A stretch of DNA of 64,000 nucleotides from an uncultured virus (IMG/VR IMGVR_UViG_3300023274_000001) (Duplodnaviria > Heunggongvirae > Uroviricota > Caudoviricetes): positions 64,001 through 128,000 of IMG/VR virus record IMGVR_UViG_3300023274_000001, one strand, 5' to 3'. Position numbers and translations under genes: made by a program. Below are positions 1 through 60,840 of the stretch, piece by piece. Below the pieces are notes generated by a model. That model saw nothing but the letters and a program-made list of their open reading frames with translations. It did not search any database and was not told the origin of the DNA. Within the stretch, counting starts at the first letter, position 1. The number at the start of each line of letters is the position of its first letter.

Positions 1-400
1 GGGTGACCGTTCCCAGCTCCTCCGGCGTCTTGACCTGAAAGACGAGCGTGATGCCCGACTTCACGATCTTCGCCTTCAGATCCTCGACCCGGCCGGAGAG
101 AGCGTCGATCTTCTCCTCCAGCTCGGTGCGCTCTTCCTGGAGAGCGTCCAGCACCGAGTCCACGAAGGAGTTCGCGGAGGTCTCGGTGCGCTTGCGGATG
201 TCCTTCTCCACGCGCTCCAGGCTCTCGACCAGAGCCTCCAGCTCTTCGAGCACGCCGCCGAGTTCGGCACCGCTCCGCTGGTCCAGGTACGCCGTGTGCT
301 CGAACACGGGGAACGTGGAGTTCCCCTCCAGGTAGTCCTCGAAGCTGAAGTTGTCGGGGCCGGGCTCCGGGTTGCCCGGCTCCGCAATGTCCTGCGCCAT
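1..400 (-). CDS. Probable tail assembly chaperone (runs off left edge)
   Basis: ATG at 400 with AAGGA RBS; MAQDIAEPGNPEPGPDNFSFEDYLEG... then coiled coil; directly downstream of the major tail gene; absent from ORF track because truncated. Confidence 0.65.
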   Translation of the reverse strand, partial: MAQDIAEPGNPEPGPDNFSFEDYLEGNSTFPVFEHTAYLDQRSGAELGGVLEELEALVESLERVEKDIRKRTETSANSFVDSVLDALQEERTELEEKIDALSGRVEDLKAKIVKSGITLVFQVKTPEELGTVT

Positions 401-426
401 GTCCGTTCCTTCGGTCGTACGGGTTG

Positions 427-993
427 TCAGCTCGCGGTGCTGCCGACCTGCACAAGGCCGTCCGAGGACTGGCCCTGGGCATACATGGTCGGCTGAAGCT
501 GAAGGGGGGCGGTCGCGTCGTTGATGACGTTGGGGTCGCCGGAGAGGAACTTGTAGACCGTGACCCAGTCGTCGTCCACCGCGTTCGGATCCCGAACGGG
601 GTGCTTCGAGATCCGCTGGACCAGGAACCCCGAGCGCAGGGGCTTCTTGAACAGGCGCATCACGTCGTTGTAGATCGACGGGTCGAGCTTGTTCGGGTCG
701 CGGTCCAGGAAGACGTTGAGCTGGCCTTCGTAGTTCTTCGCGGTCGGGGTCGCCACGTTCGAGTCGTCGCAGAGGCCACGCGTGTCGTCCGTGTCACGGT
801 CCGTCCAGCCGAGCGTGATGTCGGTGGTCAGTGCGCACGAGATGTTCAGACCCGCGTTGATCTCTGCGGCGGTCGGGTGGTCGATGTCCGCGAAACCCTC
901 GCCGTACGTGCCCTCGTACCCCTCGGACGTCTGGTCCGATTCGTCGACCCACCAGATGGTGAGCGACGGGGGGAGGCTCTTCACTGCTGCCAT
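427..993 (-). CDS. Major tail (tube) protein
   Basis: PTAAEINAGLNISCALT and DTRGLCD motifs typical of actinophage tail tube proteins; synteny. Confidence 0.85.
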   Translation of the reverse strand: MAAVKSLPPSLTIWWVDESDQTSEGYEGTYGEGFADIDHPTAAEINAGLNISCALTTDITLGWTDRDTDDTRGLCDDSNVATPTAKNYEGQLNVFLDRDPNKLDPSIYNDVMRLFKKPLRSGFLVQRISKHPVRDPNAVDDDWVTVYKFLSGDPNVINDATAPLQLQPTMYAQGQSSDGLVQVGSTAS

Positions 994-39185: not shown

Positions 39186-39584
39186 ATGGGTGCTGTCACG
39201 CTGGCCAAGCTGAGCGACGGAACGCGGGAGGACTTCCCGGGGGTCGGAATGAACTCCGGCGCGGGGGAACTCCAGTTCATCGGCGGAATGCCGACGCGCA
39301 AGATCGACGGTCCGCTGATCATGGTGGCCGGGATGCGCGTCAACCTGCCGGAGTCGGTCAAGGTCCCGGGTCCGCGCCGGGTGCGCGCGGTTGCCGTGGC
39401 CGTGGAGCGCGACGGGTTCCGGGACGCGGCCGAAACCGTGCCCAGCTACCGGGGCGTCGTGATCACGGCGGACGGTGACGAGTACCGGACGGGCCCGCGC
39501 GGTGAGATGGAGTACGTGCGCCGCGAGTGGCTGCGTCTGGCCGTGGAGTCGGGGACGTTCCGCCGTGTCGCCCGGATGAGCTAA
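39186..39584 (+). CDS. Hypothetical protein
   Basis: Strong RBS. Confidence 0.7.
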   Translation: MGAVTLAKLSDGTREDFPGVGMNSGAGELQFIGGMPTRKIDGPLIMVAGMRVNLPESVKVPGPRRVRAVAVAVERDGFRDAAETVPSYRGVVITADGDEYRTGPRGEMEYVRREWLRLAVESGTFRRVARMS

Positions 39585-48352: not shown

Positions 48353-51300
48353 ATGCACGGATCGTACGACGACATGATGGACTGGAAGTACCGGGAGGAG
48401 AACGGCGGGCGGGAGCGGGAGATCGCCTACATGCCGAACTACACGAACCCGGAACTCCCGGACTACGTCGCTCCCGAGGATCGTGACCCGGAGCTGGAAA
48501 AGGAGATGCACGAGATCTACGCCCGGGACAACGCCGGGCGCGTCGCGCGCAATCACCGGGCCGAGGTCGCCGGTCTGCGGGCGCTGCTCGAAGAGAACGG
48601 GATCGAGATCCCGGACCACCTGTGATCACCGCGTGATTCAGGGGCGCACGGGAGGGGGCTCGTGCGCGCCTGTGTCCCACGGTGGGACCTGATGGACGGA
48701 CGGAAAGGAAGAAACGTGATCAAGAAGCTGAAGGGGATCCTGGGACTGGGCATCGGCCCGTCGGAGTACGCGCCGAACCCGAGCGTGATCGGTTCGGTGG
48801 AGCAGTCGAACGCCGGGAACGCCGTGCTGCGCATCGGCAAGGCGACCGTACCCGACGAGGGCAACCCGTCGTGGACACAGACCGAGTACGTGGTGCTGTC
48901 CCCGGAAGAGCGGGACAATCTGATCGACGTGCTCGACTCGCAGAACGGCTACCGCACGGTCAAGTGCGGCGACATCATCGGCGTCGGCTCCATCGTGCTG
49001 GCCGTGCAGTACGCGAACGGTGCGGGCGGCGGGGAGCGCCGCATCGGTACGGTCCTGGCGTGGACGGACCACAAGCGGGAGTACGTGGTCTACACCGTCG
49101 ACCCGTACGGCGAGGTGAGCAACGGGACGTACACCTTCGACGAGCAGCGGGCGCTGAACGCGTACATCGCCCGGTCCAACGACCACCTGTTCCGCCACTT
49201 CAACGCCAAGCCTCCGGCCATCACGTACGCCCACGTGGCGGAGCGGGACGTCCTGAAGGGCGACCGCGCATGAGCAGCGAACTGACGGGCCTGCGGGTCA
49301 AGGTCGGACTGGCCAACCGGCCGGTCTACGGCGTCGCCCGGGTCCGGTACAACGAGGGCCACGCGCACGCCGGGAAGTACGAGATCGAGACGGCCGACGG
49401 GAAGTCCTTCCTGGCCCCGTTCGACGCATGCAGGCCCGGCGACAACTGGGACGTCACCCCGGAAGAGGGGCGGTTCACGGGGGCGGAGATCTTCCGGCCG
49501 AACTTCCTGGACGGCACCGGCAAGGCTTTCCTGAGCCGTGGCCCCGGGGTCATCGTGCCCGGGAGCATGGCGCAGATGTGGAAGCTGCTCGACCCGGTCC
49601 GGAAGGGCTGGACGGTCGAGTGGTTCAGCCGTGGCGCCAACGAGTTCCGGGGCACGCTCACGGTCGCCGAGCGGGAAGAGGCGGCGTTCCGGATGAGCGG
49701 GAAGCACGCGTTCCACTACACGTGGCCCCAGGTCGGCGAGGAGTTCGAGGTCATCGGCAACACGCTGCACGAGGTGCGGGTGCCGCCGAAGAGGACCGGT
49801 AAGCACCCGTCCCGGTCCCTGTCGCTCACGTTCCACCGACCCTGACGGAAAGAGGGAAGAGCATGACCGGAAGCACCAGATATCCGGCGACGTCGTACGA
49901 CAAGCTGAACGAGGAATGGGAGGTACGGGCGGAGCCGATCACGCAGCTCCGCATCGCCTCGGAACTGGCCCCGTGCGTGAGCGCCGGGATGACCGTGCGC
50001 GGCGGCCCGCTGCGGGCGCAGCTCCCCGACGGTTCGTCCGGACGGGAGATCGGCGCTGTGTCGATCGTGTGGAGTCAGACCGAGCAGGACGACGGCAGTC
50101 GTACGGTGCTCGGGTGGTACGAGTCCGGGCGGAACTGACGTCCGGGTGGCGGCCCGTGCAGGGTGCCGCTAGTCTGGCCTAGGCCGACGGGTTCGGGAGC
50201 GGCCGGTCCTCCGGGATCGGCCGCTGACGTGCCGTGTCGGACGGCGATTGAATCGGAGAGGGAGAAGAACATGGGGACGTATCGCACCGACGGTGAGAAC
50301 GAGATCGGCGTTGCCCTGACGGACTCGTGGGCGGCCGTGTGGACCGTCGACACGGAGTACATCGAGGTCATCCGGCGCGACTTCTGGGACGAGCACAGCG
50401 AGGCGATCAAGGAGTTCGCCGAGCGGGGCCGCGACTTCACCGACGAGGACGGCCACAACGGCACCGTCGCGGTGATCAGCACGAAGGGGGACCTGGACGG
50501 CGAGGGGTTCCCGAAGGAGTTCGACGACGCCTCGGAGTACGTCGCCGACGAGCTGTCCTCGTGGACCAGGTCGGACGGCGGCGCGTACGAGCGGGCCACC
50601 GTTCAGGGATACAGCTACTGACGGGAGCGGTTCGATGCACGGGGAACTGATCAGGTACACGTGGGCACCGAACCCCGGGATGGCCTGGGGTCTGGTTCAC
50701 CTGTCACAGGGCAGGGACGGCGACATGATCGGCGCCTTCGTGTACGAGGACCGCGACGCAGCGCTGAAGGGTGAGAAGCGGGCCGGGAACACGCTGTACC
50801 GGGTGGTGCGGCAGATCCGGCCCGCCGATCAGAGCACCGGGACCCCGGACGCCGGGGCCTACGCCTTCGTGTGCAGCTCCGCCACGGAGTACACCATCTG
50901 GACGAAGCCCACGGTGAACGACGCGGGCGGGAGCGAATACGACGGAGTGTGGTCCTTCCGGGACGCACCGGCCGCCGTGGAGCGCACCGGATGGGCGAAC
51001 AAGGACAACGCGCGGTACGAGGGACCGGACAATCCCCGGTTCGCAACGTTCCTGCTCACGTGGGACGTAACGGAAGAGGAGAGCTGACGTGCAGGAAGTC
51101 ACCCGCTGGGACCAGAAGAAGATCCAGATGTTCGACCGGGGTGACCGGGTCGAGATCGGGCCGGGCGAGGTGGCCACGGTCGAGCACGACATGGGCGGCG
51201 AGGTCGTCCACGTGCACCCGGAAGGGAGCCGGGGCCGGTATCCGCACGACGCCGTGCCGGTCGCCCGGGAGGGTGTGAAGCTGATCCGTCAGACCGTGGA

Positions 51301-55928: not shown

Positions 55929-57765
55929 GTGGCGGAAGACTGGGCGCGGGAGATCGAGACCGGGGATCACTCACTCCGCGTGGGGCCCGAGGGCGTCACG
56001 CTGGACGGGCCTGGTGGCGTGGAAGAACTGACCCCGAAGGACATCGAGCGCCTGTACCAGGCGCTCGTCAACTACCGCTCACACAGCGGACTGGACTGGG
56101 AGTGGGCCCGTCAGGGCTCCGACTGGTGGAAGTAGGAGAGGGAGAAGATGAACGAGACCACCATGCGCCTCATTCACTGGATCTGGGGCGAGCCGAAGCT
56201 GGCCGAGTTCCTGCGTGGCATCGCCGAGGGGGAGGAGATCCCGCCGCACCACGAGGTGTTCGAGTACGGGGATGACCAGCTCGCCTGCTGGATCTCCGAC
56301 CTCGTCTTCCCGGAGGACCGCAGCCGGGGGATCAAGGCGTGGATCGACCTGGGCGGCAGCGACGAGCGGGCCGACGCCCTGTATGAGACGCTGACCGAGG
56401 GCCGCAAGACGCCCGCCGGTCGCCTGAAGTGGCTCGACGAGATGGACATCGGCCTGATCCGGGACGCCCTGCTGGGGCACCGGGGAGGCTCGGACATCTA
56501 CGTCCACTCCCTGGTCAAGCCCTACCACCCGAACAACACCTACCGGGTGCACGACTCCGGGACCGTGTACGAGCGAGGGTGGACGTCGGCCTCCGGCGCC
56601 TGGGGGCTGGCCGAGAAGGACCGCCAGATCTGCCCCCGTCCCACGGTCTCGCCGTGCGGGTGCACGGTGGTCCAGCGTGGCTGACCTGAGCTGCACCTGC
56701 GGTCCCGGCACTTCGGTCGCCGGGACCCGGCAGGAGATCATCGAGCAGCGGCTGGCCCCGCTCTTCGGACTCACGGTTCCCGAGGTTCATGCCCTGCTGG
56801 ACCTGCTGGACCGGGCGAACGAGGCCACGCTGGACATCCCGGACGACAAGCGGGACCCGGACGGCGGGGAAACCGAGCGGCAGATGGCCCGGGAATCCGG
56901 CCGCACCGAGGGCTGGATCAAGAACTTTCTGGCCGCGTGGGAGTTCACGGGTGACACCCTGGACCGGGAACTGCACGAGAAGCATGGCCCATGGGGCGGT
57001 CTCTTCGGCAAACAGTCCTGAACAACTGGAACTTCACGGCCTAGGTCAGTAGTATTCGAGGGCCCCGGGAGAACCGGGGCCCGGGAGGAGAGACGGCATG
57101 CAGCAGATGGACGAGTACCGGCGCACCGCCAAGTTCGTGGACGTGGTGGCCGGTGAGCCGGGTCAGGTGCACACGGTGTACCGCTTCCCGAACACGGAGC
57201 ACGGTCACGGCCGGGCGGTCGAGTACCGCAACGCCTACAACGAGTCCCTGCGCGAGGCGATGGGGATCCCGAAGGCCGACCTGGAGCTGGAGAGCCCCGA
57301 CTGGGGTCAGCGCCGGGACGAGTATGACCGGGCCGAGAAGGTCGAGTCGTACCGGTACAACCAGGCGGGACTTTCGTACGTGCACCCGCCCAAGCTGATC
57401 GGGCCGGACGACCCGATGCCGACCGACTACCCGCACGAGTTCTGAGGAGATCCGGGATGGCCGAGCTGACCCGTGACACCACGCACTACATCGTCCATTC
57501 CACGGTCGTCGACCCGGGACCGAACTCCACCTTCGGCACCTCTCCCCCGTACTCGGGTGAGCGGGCACTGGAGCGAGCCGTGAAGGCGGCCCATGCGGAG
57601 CTGGCCGGGCGCCGCCGGGCGTTCGTGACGGCCCGGGACGGCGAGAGCCGGATCCTCGCCGTGATCCCGGTCGTGGACTACCCGGTCTTCGGGGACACGC
57701 ACGTCCCCGAGAACGCGCAGGACGCCATCACGGCCCTCTTCGAGGGGCTGGACTGGACGATCTGA
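55929..57765 (+). other. Small hypothetical genes 55929-56135, 56148-56684, 56677-57021, 57098-57445, 57457-57765
   Basis: RBS and codon usage. Confidence 0.7.
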
Positions 57766-57837
57766 CACGGACGAAACCGGGCCCCTGGGAAGGGCTCCCG
57801 GTAGGCGGAACAGGACCGCCCTGACGAGTCCCGTCAG
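57762..57837 (+). ncRNA. Type II hammerhead ribozyme
   Basis: GGAC-GAAA-CCGG..CCGG-UA^-GGCGG-loop-CCGCC-CUGACGA-GUCC: all core nucleotides and three stems present. Confidence 0.93.
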
Positions 57838-57852
57838 TACGGAGAGGAGAAG

Positions 57853-60840
57853 GTGAACGTGAATGCCGAGCTGCCCAGGTCGATCGAAACGGTGACTCTC
57901 GCCGACATGCCGGTGGGGATGACCGCCTACACCGTGCCCTGGGCCATGTATGCGGACCAGGACAGGAAGTTGTGGCTCGACCCCAACTTCACCTTCGAGA
58001 AGCGCCCGGGTGGCACCGTGCAGATGCGAGTCACACGCATCGACGAGGGATTCCAGGTGGGCTACGTACCCGGGGAGACGTACGAACCTGGAAGCGGTCG
58101 CGCCTCCGGCAAGGACGGCCTGCCCGTCATCGCGCTGACCGGGGCGCCCGAGCCCGACGACGCGAACGCCTGACCAGCAAATACGGATCGGAGAAGAACA
58201 TGCCGGTGAGCTACACCTTCACGAAGGCTGACGGGACCGAGCAGGACCCCGCCGCTGACCTGACCCCGGTACAGCAGGCGTTTCTGGCCCTGAGCGAGAT
58301 GGGGATCGGGATCCCCCGGCTGGACCGCAGCACGCTGGACGAGTGCGTGCGCCGCGCGGACCTGTTGCAGGCGTACGTCGGCATCGTGTGGCGCAACGGT
58401 GACGGGACGCCCCGGATCTTCACCCGGGCCGACTTCACCGAGCTGCTGCCCGGCGCCCGCACGAACTGGACGGCCCGCAGCAAGCGGGACTTCGACCAGG
58501 CCATGAAGAAGGAGATCGACGCGTACTGGAACAGCGTCGACAGCCGCAAGAAGTAGGAGGACGGCATGCCCCGGTGGCGGTACGACCTGGACCAGGTGAT
58601 CCGGGTGATGGACCAGGTGATCGACAAGGAACCCGAGCGGATCGACCGGCGGGCCGAGGGGCGCCTGGGCTGCGTGTACGCCGAGCACGGGGCGGCGGCC
58701 TGCCTGGTGGGCGAGATGCTGGTGGCCCTCGGGATCGAGGTTCGCACCCTGCGGGGGCTCGACCGGGAGGGTAAGTACATCCACGAGTCGGAGCACCCGT
58801 TCTGGCGCCGGTTCCAGCCGGAGGCCCGGGATCTCCTGTCGTACCTGCAACGGCAGAACGACGCCTCGTGGACCTGGGCGAAGGCCCGGGAGCGGGCGTT
58901 CACCGTCAATCGCAGGTGGTTCGAAGAGGGACCCGAGTCCCGCTACTACCACCGGGCGTTCCCGGGCGCCTGGGTGACCGCCGAGAACTATCGCAAGATC
59001 ACGAAGTACTGAGGAGAGGGAAGAACGTGGACAGCTTCACGAACGTGGCCGCCGACGCGGTGACGGCGCACGAGAACGGGACATACCGGAAGGGCGCCAA
59101 CGCCGCCGCCGATCACGTGGTCGAGGCGGTCAGGAAGTACGGCAAGTGGGCGGTGCTCGCCGCCTCCGAGCTGATCAAGCTCGACCCGGACGACGCCTTC
59201 GAGGACATCCCGGCCGACAAGGTCATGGAGTTCATGGAGGAGAACTACCTGCACTCCGGGGCCACCGTCGCCCACGCGCTGGAGACCTACGCCAAGGACG
59301 CCGGGGACCACACCGAGCTGGGCCGCCTGTACGACGCGCTCGACAAGGCGGGCGGCGTGGACCGCTTCGACTGGGGCTCTTATGCCGACGACGGCATGAC
59401 CCCGACGATCGGCCTGCACTTCGTCGTGATGCCGGTCCCGGCGGGCGAGTCCGGCACCTTCATCTTCGGGAGCTGAGCCATGTCCTGGGAATCCAACCGG
59501 GAAGTGATCCGGACCTGCCTCGCGGAAGCGATGAAGGGCAAGGCCGGAGCGAACGGTCCCGGAACCCTGCGGGAGGTGCGCGGCAAGAACGACTCGGACA
59601 CCTGGTTCACGATCATCGGGACCTGGCGCCTGTACGCCCGCTTCCTCGCCGCCGTGGCCGCCGAGAGCGCGCAGACGGCGCACATCCTGGACTTCAACAT
59701 GGTCCCCGGTGACCCCGGGGACGGGAGCGGCGAGATGGAGTTCTTCTTCGTCGGCTGCCGCCTCGCGGACTTCGAGAAGAGGGGGAGCTGACCACATGGT
59801 CAACGGCGGTGACATGCTCGACTGGTGGACGGTTCCGGGTGCCCGCTGGGGTGTGCGGAACGTGGACTTCAAGGTCGAGCTGAAGCGGGACGGGGTGGCC
59901 AGCCCGGTCCTGCTGGAGGGGTACAGCGAGGAAGACCTGGCCGCGTTCGACGGCGGTGACTGGCAGTTCGTCATCGTCCGCGTGGTGCCGGTGGACCGGG
60001 ACCTCACGGACCTGGTGAGCGCCGAGCGGTTCATCCGGGGTGTGGACTGGGGCGACCTGCCGCAGGGCCGCATCGACCGGGAGGATGTGACCGACGCGCA
60101 GGCGAAGGAGCTGGCCATCGAGTCGGTCCGGGCGCTGCGCAGCTTCGGGGTCACCGTCGAGACGGAACGGGACAGCGAGTTCGCGATCCCGCGCGTTACG
60201 GCTCCGTTCTGAACGAGCCCTGTGGGGCCCTCGCCGAGGGCCCCGTGGAGTCCGGTTCAGCCGGTGAAAACGGAAGGGAGAAGAGGATGCTCACATTGGT
60301 GCTGTGCTTTCCGGCGCAGGGGAGGATGCCCCGGGGCGAGCTGCGGATCTCCGCCAGTCACGTCCCGCAACTCGGCTCGACCATCAACACGCCGAGCCCC
60401 CGATTCGGTACCTGGAAGGTGAATCACATCGGCCAGGACACGGACGGGACCACCCTGAGCGACACGGTGTTCCTCTACCTGGAGGAGACGGACTGATGGG
60501 ACACCGGATCAAGGTCGAACGGTACGGCCTGGACCACGCACTGGAGAGCAGCGAGGAGTTCAACGCCCCCTCATGGGAGGGCATCTGGCAGGCCGTCGAG
60601 GGCGAGATGGAGCGCACCGGAAAGACGCCGAGCGGCATGGAGGGCTGGGAAGAGGGCGGCTGCGTCCTGGACTCGGACCACGACTGCGAGGCCGACCCCG
60701 CCAAGTGCGAGGAGAACCTGAAGGACGCGATCCGGGACTGGATCAAGTCGTCCTGGGAGAACGACGAACTGAAGACCGGCAGCTTCCACTTCGGCGGCGT
60801 GGACTGGTCGTCGGTCACCTTCGGATGGGACGGAGAGTAG
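57853..60840 (+). other. Small hypothetical genes 57853-58173, 58200-58556, 58566-59012, 59027-59476, 59480-59791, 59796-60212, 60287-60496, 60496-60840
   Basis: RBS and codon usage. Confidence 0.7.

Follow-up and report, generated by a model that had tools for sequence, protein, structure and literature searches.

The closest known counterparts of the element reported here are the type II hammerhead ribozymes that Perreault et al. described in bacteria and (pro)phages (2011, PMC3088659), represented in Rfam by family RF02276 (Hammerhead_II). That study demonstrated in vitro as well as in vivo cleavage by clustered prophage hammerheads in polycistronic RNAs and proposed that such RNAs are processed into gene-length mRNAs; it also includes an inactive "Xanthomonas phage" example (Fig. 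S7). The biological role of phage intergenic hammerheads, known since 2011, is described as still open in a review (PMC6155905). Within the published reports searched, a set that did not extend to the supplementary hammerhead lists of PMC3088659, no description of hammerheads in Streptomyces phages or actinobacteriophages was found.

The window analyzed here is a stretch of 64,000 nucleotides (positions 64,001 to 128,000) from the genome of an uncultured virus of the Caudoviricetes, a large Streptomyces phage (IMG/VR record IMGVR_UViG_3300023274_000001). Its positions 57762–57837 (plus strand) probably form a genuine type II hammerhead self-cleaving ribozyme within a polycistronic transcript, which would uncouple two cistrons and release its products with the help of a 3' tail. 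The element belongs to a known kind, the type II hammerheads located between phage genes (Perreault 2011), with which it shares the catalytic core and the permutation, the site between co-directional phage genes, the presence of several copies per genome, and the proposed conversion of polycistronic RNA into gene-length mRNAs. It differs from them in having a stem II lengthened, across a small internal loop, by a 5-bp clamp that holds the upstream stop codon, and a tail able to pair with the core instead.

Architecture and genomic setting of the element

The features of the locus, in window coordinates, are as follows.

57457–57765, plus strand: upstream ORF (102 aa, no assigned function), whose UGA stop codon (57763–57765) lies within the 5' clamp of the ribozyme
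57762–57766, plus strand: 5' clamp CUGAC, which in the minimum free energy (MFE) fold pairs with GUCAG (57833–57837) and prolongs stem II past a small internal loop (AC 57767–57768 / C 57832)
57767–57768, plus strand: internal loop AC
57769–57772, plus strand: 5' strand of stem II, GGAC (positions 11.4–11.1), partner GUCC (57828–57831); from fold and covariation
57773–57775, plus strand: core G12 A13 A14, unchanged in 11 of 11 aligned hammerheads
57773–57776, plus strand: GAAA, comprising G12 A13 A14 and A15.1
57776–57802, plus strand: stem III hairpin, with A15.1:U16.1 and CCGG/CCGG at its base and a GC-rich apical stem
57801–57803, plus strand: GUA (G16.2 U16.1 A17)
57803/57804, plus strand: predicted scissile bond between A17 (57803) and G1.1 (57804), with the chemistry presumed from the family
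57804–57820, plus strand: stem I hairpin, GGCGG (57804–57808), 7-nt loop AACAGGA, and CCGCC (57816–57820); from MFE fold and covariation
57821–57827, plus strand: core C3 U4 G5 A6 C7 G8 A9 (CUGACGA), all invariant except N7
57828–57831, plus strand: 3' strand of stem II, GUCC (positions 10.1–10.4); from fold and covariation
57832, plus strand: bulged C
57832–57837, plus strand: 3' tail CGUCAG, whose partner is either the 5' clamp (active fold) or core CUGACG, 57821–57826 (alternative hairpin that excludes the active fold)
57833–57837, plus strand: 3' clamp GUCAG
57841–57849, plus strand: Shine-Dalgarno-like ribosome-binding site (RBS) of the downstream gene, GGAGAGGAG, unpaired in both folds as well as in the 3' product
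57853–58173, plus strand: downstream ORF (106 aa, no assigned function), starting at GTG 57853 or at the in-frame GTG 57859

The unconstrained MFE fold of positions 57755–57845 (-37.9 kcal/mol) is exactly the hammerhead three-way junction, with the type II topology in which stems I and III are capped and the chain enters and leaves through the open stem II. CUGACGA supplies the hammerhead core strand C3 U4 G5 A6 N7 G8 A9; in GAAA, A57776 (A15.1) pairs with U57802 (U16.1), an A-U pair in all 11 aligned sequences; position 17, which in hammerheads is not G, is A57803; and the 10.1–11.1 pair is the expected G-C (G57828–C57772). Reading GUA as G16.2 U16.1 A17 places the scissile bond at 57803/57804.

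A preliminary description of this locus, all coordinates of which proved correct in a base-for-base check of the window, had claimed a complete type II hammerhead that overlaps the upstream stop codon, ends just before the next RBS, and on cleavage would split the mRNA, leaving the downstream gene with a 5'-OH hairpin leader. The conserved core is indeed full and the three helices are present, the stop codon and the RBS lie as claimed, and the predicted 3' product begins with such a leader and has a free RBS. Two of its details need amendment: the CCGG/CCGG base of stem III stands but the apical register is ambiguous (CCCU/AGGG in RNAfold, GCCC/GGGC in that description), and the extension of stem II by CUGAC/GUCAG does form in the MFE fold but GUCAG has a second partner (see below).

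Loop I faces the internal loop sited 4 bp up stem II and is conserved, occurring as AACAGGA, CACGGGA, AACGGUA, or AACAGUA. Inspection by eye revealed no pseudoknot of at least 4 bp joining loop I to the 3' tail, a tertiary contact that is usual in type II hammerheads, and no loop I pairing, whether with the tail or with the 5' flank, that was consistent across orthologues.

With a z-score of only -1.32, the folding energy by itself is unremarkable. A strict descriptor applied to both strands (CUGANGA, GAAA, A15.1:U16.1, H17 other than G, and stems of at least 4, 3, and 4 bp) detected a single site in the 188,697-bp genome and none in any of 40 dinucleotide shuffles, and a relaxed version detected 2 sites, compared with a shuffle mean of 0.075. 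The minus strand folds slightly better (-40.7, z = -2.02) but lacks a hammerhead core and is antisense to the gene array.

Hammerhead models, the check proposed in the preliminary description, do not reach Rfam thresholds here: the window element scores 13.7 bits with RF02276, for which the gathering score is 37, and a second copy in the same genome scores 26.8 bits. At gathering thresholds, Rfam produced no matches in the window or in 17 loci bearing such ribozymes. In E-value mode, the sole hammerhead match was to RF00008 (17.6 bits), a mis-permuted alignment that combined the true stem I and core with a CGAAAC that lies 60 nt downstream and is unrelated; matches to b55 and mir-2387 (E-values of 0.29 to 9.2) were discarded as chance.

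A PHROGs search with 8 neighboring proteins yielded no functional match and 3 family matches, all of "unknown function." A tRNA scan of the window found no genes. Scanning for promoter-like or terminator-like sites detected none near the element, which fits read-through transcription.

Conservation and related ribozymes

The element is present in all 7 phage records that share the region, which belong to related Streptomyces phages, and its flanking genes vary: Quantum has a different upstream gene and Frankenweenie a different downstream one. The 76-nt ribozyme of Frankenweenie is nevertheless identical to that of the window, and only one flanking position differs within 57755–57845. The coding sequences homologous to the upstream ORF in Frankenweenie and JustBecause stop at the same UGA. 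Frankenweenie and one metatranscriptome contig lack the downstream ORF, and their ribozyme is directly followed by the homologue of the gene that comes next in the window (ATG 58200). The ribozymes of this phage group all occupy gaps of 85 to 95 nt that separate a stop codon from the RBS that follows, and CUGAC precedes stem II in 16 of their 17 hammerheads. In three GenBank records, the annotated upstream stop codon lies within the CUGAC clamp for 8 of 9 ribozymes and 1 nt before it for the ninth. A wider IMG/VR sample has the same layout, with 93 of 108 type II hammerheads starting at most 10 nt from the stop codon of a frame that is 50 or more codons long (4 of 108 in a control window).

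In an alignment of 11 hammerheads, the cells of the proposed helices are able to pair in 96.3% of cases, a value reached by none of 500 shuffles (77.6%), and slid-alignment controls pair in 37 to 55%. Both sides have changed in 8 of 15 pairs, including the stem III pairs 11-42, 12-41, and 13-40. Pairing amounts to 100% in stems I and III and 86.4% in stem II. The core is invariant in all 11 sequences except at N7, and position 17 is A (in the window), U (in JustBecause), or C (in Quantum, Xp15, and others), never G. An invariant core needed only for catalysis, next to freely varying stems and in phages with differing neighbors, supports the assignment as a type II hammerhead. A base-for-base reading of the orthologues other than Kela revealed departures as well: the G10.1–C11.1 pair is replaced by U.U in JustBecause and in three further loci (L021, L026, and L027), stem II of Quantum contains a bulged A, and a U.C mismatch occurs in L023. 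Some orthologues could accordingly be slow or inactive. In the alignment, the 10.1/11.1 pair is non-standard in 3 of 11 rows, one of which reflects an alignment offset.

A covariance model (R1) detected two sites in the genome itself, at 83.3 and 53.4 bits, the second of them outside the window and 22 kb from the window copy, as well as 16 matches in 5 relatives (E-values of at most 1e-4; 26 to 83 bits), every one of them on the strand of the genes. Each relative carries 2 to 4 such ribozymes; in Quantum and G002, two hammerheads bracket a single gene of ~72 aa, and in G001 two lie ~570 nt apart. A weak R1 match at genome positions 103428–103496 (window 39428–39496; 14.6 bits, E-value of 0.19) lacks the CUGANGA/GAAA pair and was rejected. 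A pattern scan of IMG/VR gave 27 matches, 9 of them hammerheads as judged by eye and 18 unrelated coding sequence.

The second copy in the same genome represents a widespread phage type II form, also found in IMG/VR contigs and in Burkholderia and Microbacterium phages, in which stem II is GGCC and a U is inserted between A9 and G10.1. An additional nucleotide at this place is also known from natural hammerheads such as that of CChMVd. The window element, which co-occurs with the GGCC form in every relative examined, has the same topology, the same order of stop codon, ribozyme, and RBS, and the same NUCAG tail, and many members of the GGCC form also have the CUGAC 5' clamp. In contrast to that form, it lacks the inserted U and has GGAC/GUCC as stem II, its stem I consists of 5 bp with a 7-nt loop (6 to 7 bp and 3 to 5 nt in the GGCC form), its stem III is longer and interrupted, and one extra C separates stem II from the tail.

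A more distant homologue is found in the Xanthomonas phage Xp15 (NC_007024, positions 396–457, minus strand), which has a host of another phylum, with 79.7% identity over 64 nt. Its stem I is identical and its stem II the same, its loop I is one base off (AACAGUA versus AACAGGA in the window), and it likewise lies between two small co-directional genes. Stem III shows a compensatory change from CCGG/CCGG to CCUG/CAGG and is continuous; N7 is U, and both the clamp and the NUCAG tail are absent.

Dual pairing of the 3' tail and the proposed course of cleavage

The GUCAG of the tail is complementary to the CUGAC of the 5' clamp and also to the CUGAC of the catalytic core, and the two resulting folds differ by 1 kcal/mol in the window and by 0 to 6.4 kcal/mol in all 17 ribozymes of the Streptomyces-phage group. 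By nearest-neighbor energies, the inactive alternative equals or exceeds the hammerhead fold in stability in 13 of these 17. In a wider phage sample, NUCAG directly follows stem II in 54 of 116 distinct ribozymes, versus 4 of 3132 background positions, and its first base is the Watson-Crick partner of N7 in all 54 carriers (43 C:G, 10 U:A, and 1 G:C). This unbroken match points to a hairpin that may act as an off-state or as a product-release element. A complementary 5' strand is found in only 28 of the 54 carriers; the clamp, absent from the other 26, is therefore unnecessary for conservation of the tail.

The element most likely cuts a long phage mRNA into separate pieces. The three-way junction would form upon transcription, and the 2'-OH of A57803 would attack its own 3' phosphate, breaking the chain between 57803 and 57804. 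The upstream mRNA would retain its stop codon, and its 3' end would be the GC-rich hairpin of stem III, carrying a 2',3'-cyclic phosphate; the stem I hairpin, with a 5'-OH, would head the downstream mRNA. This downstream RNA could then refold, its tail CGUCAG (57832–57837) pairing with core CUGACG (57821–57826), so as to dissolve stem II and the clamp, the sole helix between the two fragments, thereby freeing the upstream RNA and blocking re-ligation. The refolded product, predicted to form two tandem 5' hairpins ahead of an unpaired RBS, would leave neighboring cistrons as separate mRNAs with protected ends, the element being one of 2 to 4 such "punctuation marks" per genome. What we infer here comprises cleavage itself and its timing, the role of the tail hairpin in releasing the product, and any consequences for the stability or translation of the mRNA.

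Alternative inactive folds are known from viroid and satellite hammerheads, in which a competing helix sequesters the core and sets the timing of activity. The competitor proposed here differs in being a short 3' tail in the mRNA of a DNA phage that covaries with N7, and it would act on a linear mRNA rather than on a replicating circle.

The same two folds could instead make up a translation-gated switch, with the tail choosing between the stop-containing clamp (active) and the core (inactive), rather than a constitutive cutter. Given the size of its footprint, a ribosome terminating at UGA 57763–57765 would cover the clamp together with the 5' strand of stem II, so that translation of the upstream gene would favor the inactive hairpin and untranslated RNA would cleave. 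The near-equal energies of the folds throughout the group, the position of annotated stop codons inside the clamp in 8 of 9 GenBank cases, the covariation of tail and N7, and the proximity of ribozyme starts to stop codons are all consistent with such gating. However, this proximity may simply reflect genome compaction, nearly half of the tail carriers (26 of 54) have no 5' clamp, and co-transcriptional cleavage may be finished ahead of any ribosome, and we consider a switch of this kind unlikely. A tentative proposal, likewise unlikely, is that of a bistable device that reads upstream translation, on when GUCAG pairs with the stop-containing clamp and off, or with its product released, when it pairs with the core; terminating ribosomes would decide whether and when the cistrons are cut, and the pairing of tail and core would represent a hitherto undescribed element that serves phage type II hammerheads generally in control or release.

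Uncut contigs, paired copies, and the meaning of the ribozyme set

None of the sequencing runs examined as raw reads contained the stretch. Contigs from four further runs, which show neither RNA ends nor strand and come from libraries that may contain DNA, were compared with it. Uncut contigs extend across 57803/57804 in RNA libraries X16 (57724–57925) and X18 (57666–57846) and in X15, a library that is probably DNA; as these bridging contigs may represent DNA or an uncleaved fraction, they neither prove nor exclude cleavage. They would also be expected from a conserved, hammerhead-shaped intergenic RNA in which cleavage has been lost or is negligible and which serves as a cluster of mRNA-stabilizing or RNase-processing hairpins or as a protein-binding site. 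The non-canonical 10.1/11.1 pair in one clade, the stability of the alternative fold (at least equal in 13 of 17), and scores below the Rfam threshold agree with such a role, but a mere hairpin cluster would not be expected to keep the unpaired, catalysis-only C3-A6, G8, A9, and G12-A14 invariant in 11 of 11 sequences while its stems vary freely, or to avoid G at position 17. This makes a non-cleaving RNA very improbable.

Hammerhead products carry 5'-OH and cyclic phosphate ends that can be ligated. Paired ribozymes could excise gene-length RNAs for later splicing or ligation into circles, and the window copy would be one end of such a unit. This idea was raised in PMC3088659 and is in keeping with the paired hammerheads of Quantum, G002, and G001. 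The two copies in the genome studied here are, however, 22 kb apart, no back-splice joint was seen among the contigs compared with the stretch, and Perreault et al. reported that circular or spliced products could not be detected (PMC3088659); excision appears more improbable still. That GC-rich DNA resembles the hammerhead consensus by chance, for which the unexceptional folding energy and the lack of Rfam matches at gathering thresholds could be cited, has a negligible probability and is already refuted by conservation and covariation: all 7 relatives and Xp15 keep the element, with compensatory changes, and the strict match is absent from all 40 shuffles.

Self-cleavage of a polycistronic mRNA remains the preferred reading. 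The finding adds a well-conserved, unannotated set of ribozymes in the cultured Streptomyces phages Frankenweenie, JustBecause, Kela, Quantum, Satis, Kradal, and EhyElimayoE. Rfam thresholds miss these ribozymes, and the "empty" gaps of 85 to 95 nt that they occupy stay unexplained in current annotations. Since the cultured phages can be grown and mutated, the role of the ribozymes is open to experiment, and the fixed order of stop codon, ribozyme, and RBS, together with a tail that covaries with N7, offers a concrete mechanism to test, be it irreversible cleavage or coupling to translation.

A type II hammerhead between two phage genes

The window comprises bases 64001-128000 of a virus record of 188,697 bp, whose closest named relatives are the large Streptomyces phages Frankenweenie, JustBecause, Kela, Quantum, Kradal, EhyElimayoE, and Satis. 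The preliminary description, made from the sequence alone, assigned positions 57762-57837 of the plus strand to a type II hammerhead ribozyme that overlaps an upstream stop codon and ends just 5' of a ribosome-binding site (RBS), and its base-by-base account matches the sequence exactly.

Elements of the hammerhead and its 3' flank (window coordinates)
57762-57766, plus: 5' clamp strand CUGAC, extending stem II; followed by AC
57769-57772, plus: 5' strand of stem II, GGAC
57773-57776, plus: GAAA (G12-A14 and A15.1)
57776:57802, plus: A:U pair (A15.1:U16.1) closing stem III, a GC-rich hairpin
57803, plus: A, the H17 residue
57804-57820, plus: stem I, GGCGG-AACAGGA-CCGCC
57821-57827, plus: core CUGACGA (C3-A9)
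57828-57831, plus: 3' strand of stem II, GUCC, including the G10.1:C11.1 pair; followed by C
57833-57837, plus: 3' clamp strand, or tail, GUCAG
57841-57849, plus: Shine-Dalgarno-like GGAGAGGAG, beginning 4 nt past the ribozyme; followed by GTG at 57853

With loops closing stems I and III and stem II left open, the topology is type II, and the hammerhead junction is the unconstrained minimum-free-energy fold of 57755-57845; the assignment holds for the core, the three stems, and the topology. The overlap, too, was described correctly: ORF 57457-57765 ends with a UGA contained in the clamp CUGAC, and GGAGAGGAG follows the tail. Judged by its sequence, this is a real, correctly described type II hammerhead, with cleavage predicted, and a new, unannotated example of a known ribozyme class, in growable phages. 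A strict type II descriptor finds a single site in the whole genome (both strands) and none in any of 40 dinucleotide shuffles, and a relaxed one finds 2 sites versus a shuffle mean of 0.075; the fold energy by itself is unexceptional (z = -1.32). The Rfam hammerhead models, which had been proposed as a check, do not recognize the element at their thresholds: RF02276 gives it 13.7 bits, and the second copy of the same genome 26.8 bits, against a gathering score of 37. At the gathering level, Rfam returned no match in window 1-64000 or in 17 loci containing such ribozymes, and ARAGORN returned no tRNA or tmRNA genes in window 1-64000.

Covariation, relatives, and gene context

In an alignment of 11 hammerheads, standard pairs fill 96.3% of the cells, a level that none of 500 column shuffles attained (77.6% in the shuffles); with the partners slid, the figure is 37 to 55%. 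Pairing is 100% in stems I and III and 86.4% in stem II, 8 of the 15 pairs change on both sides (figures that are not a count of independent events), and N7 is the only unpaired core position that varies. The aligned sequences include both orthologues and more remote type II hammerheads, so what these figures show is that the window element behaves like the rest of them. Inspection by eye revealed no pseudoknot involving loop I.

The covariance model R1, built from the 11-sequence alignment, detects two sites in the window's own genome, with the window element scoring 83.3 bits. In the second copy, stem I has 7 bp, the CUGAC/GUCAG clamp is retained, and an RBS lies immediately 3'; orthologues of this copy are present in all five relatives searched, in which R1 yields 16 matches with E <= 1e-4 (2 to 4 in each genome), all on the gene strand.

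Further type II hammerheads
Own genome, 143677-143739 (outside the window; 1501-1563 of its locus L041), plus: second copy, R1 53.4 bits over 143677-143732
Xanthomonas phage Xp15, NC_007024 396-457 (1502-1563 of its locus L012), minus: between small genes gp02 and gp01
IMG/VR viral contig L028, 516-597, 1330-1419, 2075-2168, and 3421-3495: four hammerheads

The window element is present in all seven phage records that share the region, with 89 to 99% identity over the matched part, compared with 75 to 90% in the flanking coding DNA. Its homologue lies directly 3' of the homologue of window ORF 57098-57445 in Quantum and directly 5' of the homologue of the gene starting at 58200 in Frankenweenie, so that the element is kept independently of the flanking genes. 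The H17 residue varies among A (window, Frankenweenie), U (JustBecause), and C (Quantum), with G never found. In one clade, read base for base in JustBecause (2234-2297 of its locus L003) and the IMG/VR loci L021, L026, and L027, the orthologues have U.U (GGAU...UUCC) in place of G10.1-C11.1; this U.U was found in two gene-context backgrounds. In the Quantum orthologue, an A is bulged out of stem II. The unannotated Xp15 hammerhead is 79.7% identical to the window element; it shares stem I and, very nearly, loop I, and its stem III shows a compensatory change to CCUG/CAGG. In a phage whose host belongs to another phylum, this suggests ribozyme transfer or strong convergence. The IMG/VR locus L023 carries a type II hammerhead with a short, unrelated stem III and a U.C mismatch; the four hammerheads of the 38.5-kb contig L028 fall inside 3 kb at a spacing of about a gene length, and one more was found in a gammaproteobacterial MAG.

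The second copy belongs to a second type of these ribozymes, distinguished by a GGCC/GGCC stem II, a U inserted between A9 and G10.1, and a stem I of 6 to 7 bp. This type shares the CUGAC...GUCAG clamp, and its stems I and III covary extensively; by blastn it is found also in Burkholderia and Microbacterium phages. By eye, nearly all the IMG/VR sequences listed have an A just 5' of the GGCC stem II, and loop I mostly begins with U; the two may form a tertiary U.A contact. Two ribozymes flank a single 72-aa gene, gene 247, of Quantum (PQ412544 146129-146184 and 146440-146495), and a single gene of about 72 aa in genome G002 likewise lies between two hammerheads (49048-49103 and 49362-49417).

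The location between a stop codon and an RBS recurs as a rule, which the window element obeys. All nine ribozymes in three GenBank records fill 85- to 95-nt gaps, devoid of annotated features, between co-directional hypothetical genes; the annotated stop is the clamp UGA in eight of them and lies 1 nt 5' of the clamp in the ninth. Among the matches listed from an IMG/VR scan for the second type, 93 of the 108 sampled ribozymes with sufficient flanking sequence start -1 to 10 nt past a stop that ends a frame of 50 codons or more, compared with such a stop in 4 of 108 in a control window 60 to 74 nt upstream, and 88 of 108 are followed within 60 nt by a Shine-Dalgarno-like motif and a start codon.

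Of four sequencing runs examined as contigs, three contain contigs that bridge the predicted cleavage site and are compatible with cleavage and with its absence alike: a soil metatranscriptome contig covering 57724-57925 and a transcriptomic-library contig in which 57666-57846 is joined to 58190, neither carrying RNA-end information and both possibly derived from DNA, and one contig from a library that is probably DNA. The 57846-58190 joint is a natural variant without gene 57853-58173, which is also absent in Frankenweenie; this gene is an indel. Similar leaders bracket it, UACGGAGAGGAGAAG 3' of the ribozyme and UACGGAUCGGAGAAGAAC 5' of the ATG at 58200 (window 57847-58189 and 58170-58199), and its stop sits in CCUGACC, which resembles the ribozyme clamp without a ribozyme.

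A helix between tail and core

The tail GUCAG is complementary to the clamp CUGAC and also to the core residues C3-N7 (CUGAC); with C57832 and G8 included, the tail-core hairpin CUGACG/CGUCAG has 6 bp. For the window element, the energies of the hammerhead fold (-37.9 kcal/mol) and the tail-core fold (-36.9 kcal/mol) are nearly equal. The two differ by 0 to 6.4 kcal/mol in all 17 ribozymes of the Streptomyces-phage group, and the alternative is at least equally stable in 13 of them. Folded alone, the predicted 3' cleavage product forms two hairpins, stem I and tail-core, and leaves the RBS unpaired.

N7 is otherwise free in hammerheads. IMG/VR was scanned for the second type with no tail required, which gave at least 116 distinct sequences from at least 109 loci. 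Among the matches listed, NUCAG directly follows stem II in 54 of 116 distinct sequences, against 4 of 3132 other downstream positions, and only 28 of these 54 carriers have the complementary 5' strand. The first tail base is Watson-Crick complementary to N7 in every carrier (43 C:G, 10 U:A, and 1 G:C, with no mismatches), counted as distinct sequences and not as independent events. Covariation of the tail with an otherwise free N7 supports a real tail-core helix, one incompatible with the active core. No description of such pairing was found in the hammerhead literature searched, including passages of PMC3088659 and PMC6155905.

Proposed role in phage mRNAs

Type II hammerheads were described by Perreault et al. 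(2011; PMC3088659) in bacteria and prophages, often several per prophage and flanking genes of unknown function; the polycistronic RNA was cleaved in vitro and in vivo, and the function was given as unknown. A review (PMC6155905) still terms the role of such hammerheads an open question. No published mention of hammerheads in Streptomyces phages or actinobacteriophages was found, and the supplements of PMC3088659 may list some; "hammerhead" with "Streptomyces phage" retrieved only one aminoglycoside/phage-infection study (preprint and journal versions), and with "actinobacteriophage" nothing.

From the chemistry of the family and the fold energies, the RNA would be cut at the 57803/57804 bond, either during transcription or soon afterwards. 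This would leave the upstream mRNA with the stem III hairpin and a cyclic phosphate at its 3' end, and the downstream one would begin with a 5'-OH, followed by the stem I and tail-core hairpins. By displacing stem II and the clamp, whose pairing joins the fragments with about -10 kcal/mol, the tail-core hairpin would free both products and prevent re-ligation. The expected benefit, reasoned from 5'-end-dependent and 3'-exonucleolytic decay, would be that neighbouring cistrons are stabilized and translated independently of one another. The main rival explanation is that both helices form a switch, read by the ribosome terminating on the stop codon of the clamp. As an alternative fold, the tail-core helix is possibly a new feature of these ribozymes, and a testable one.
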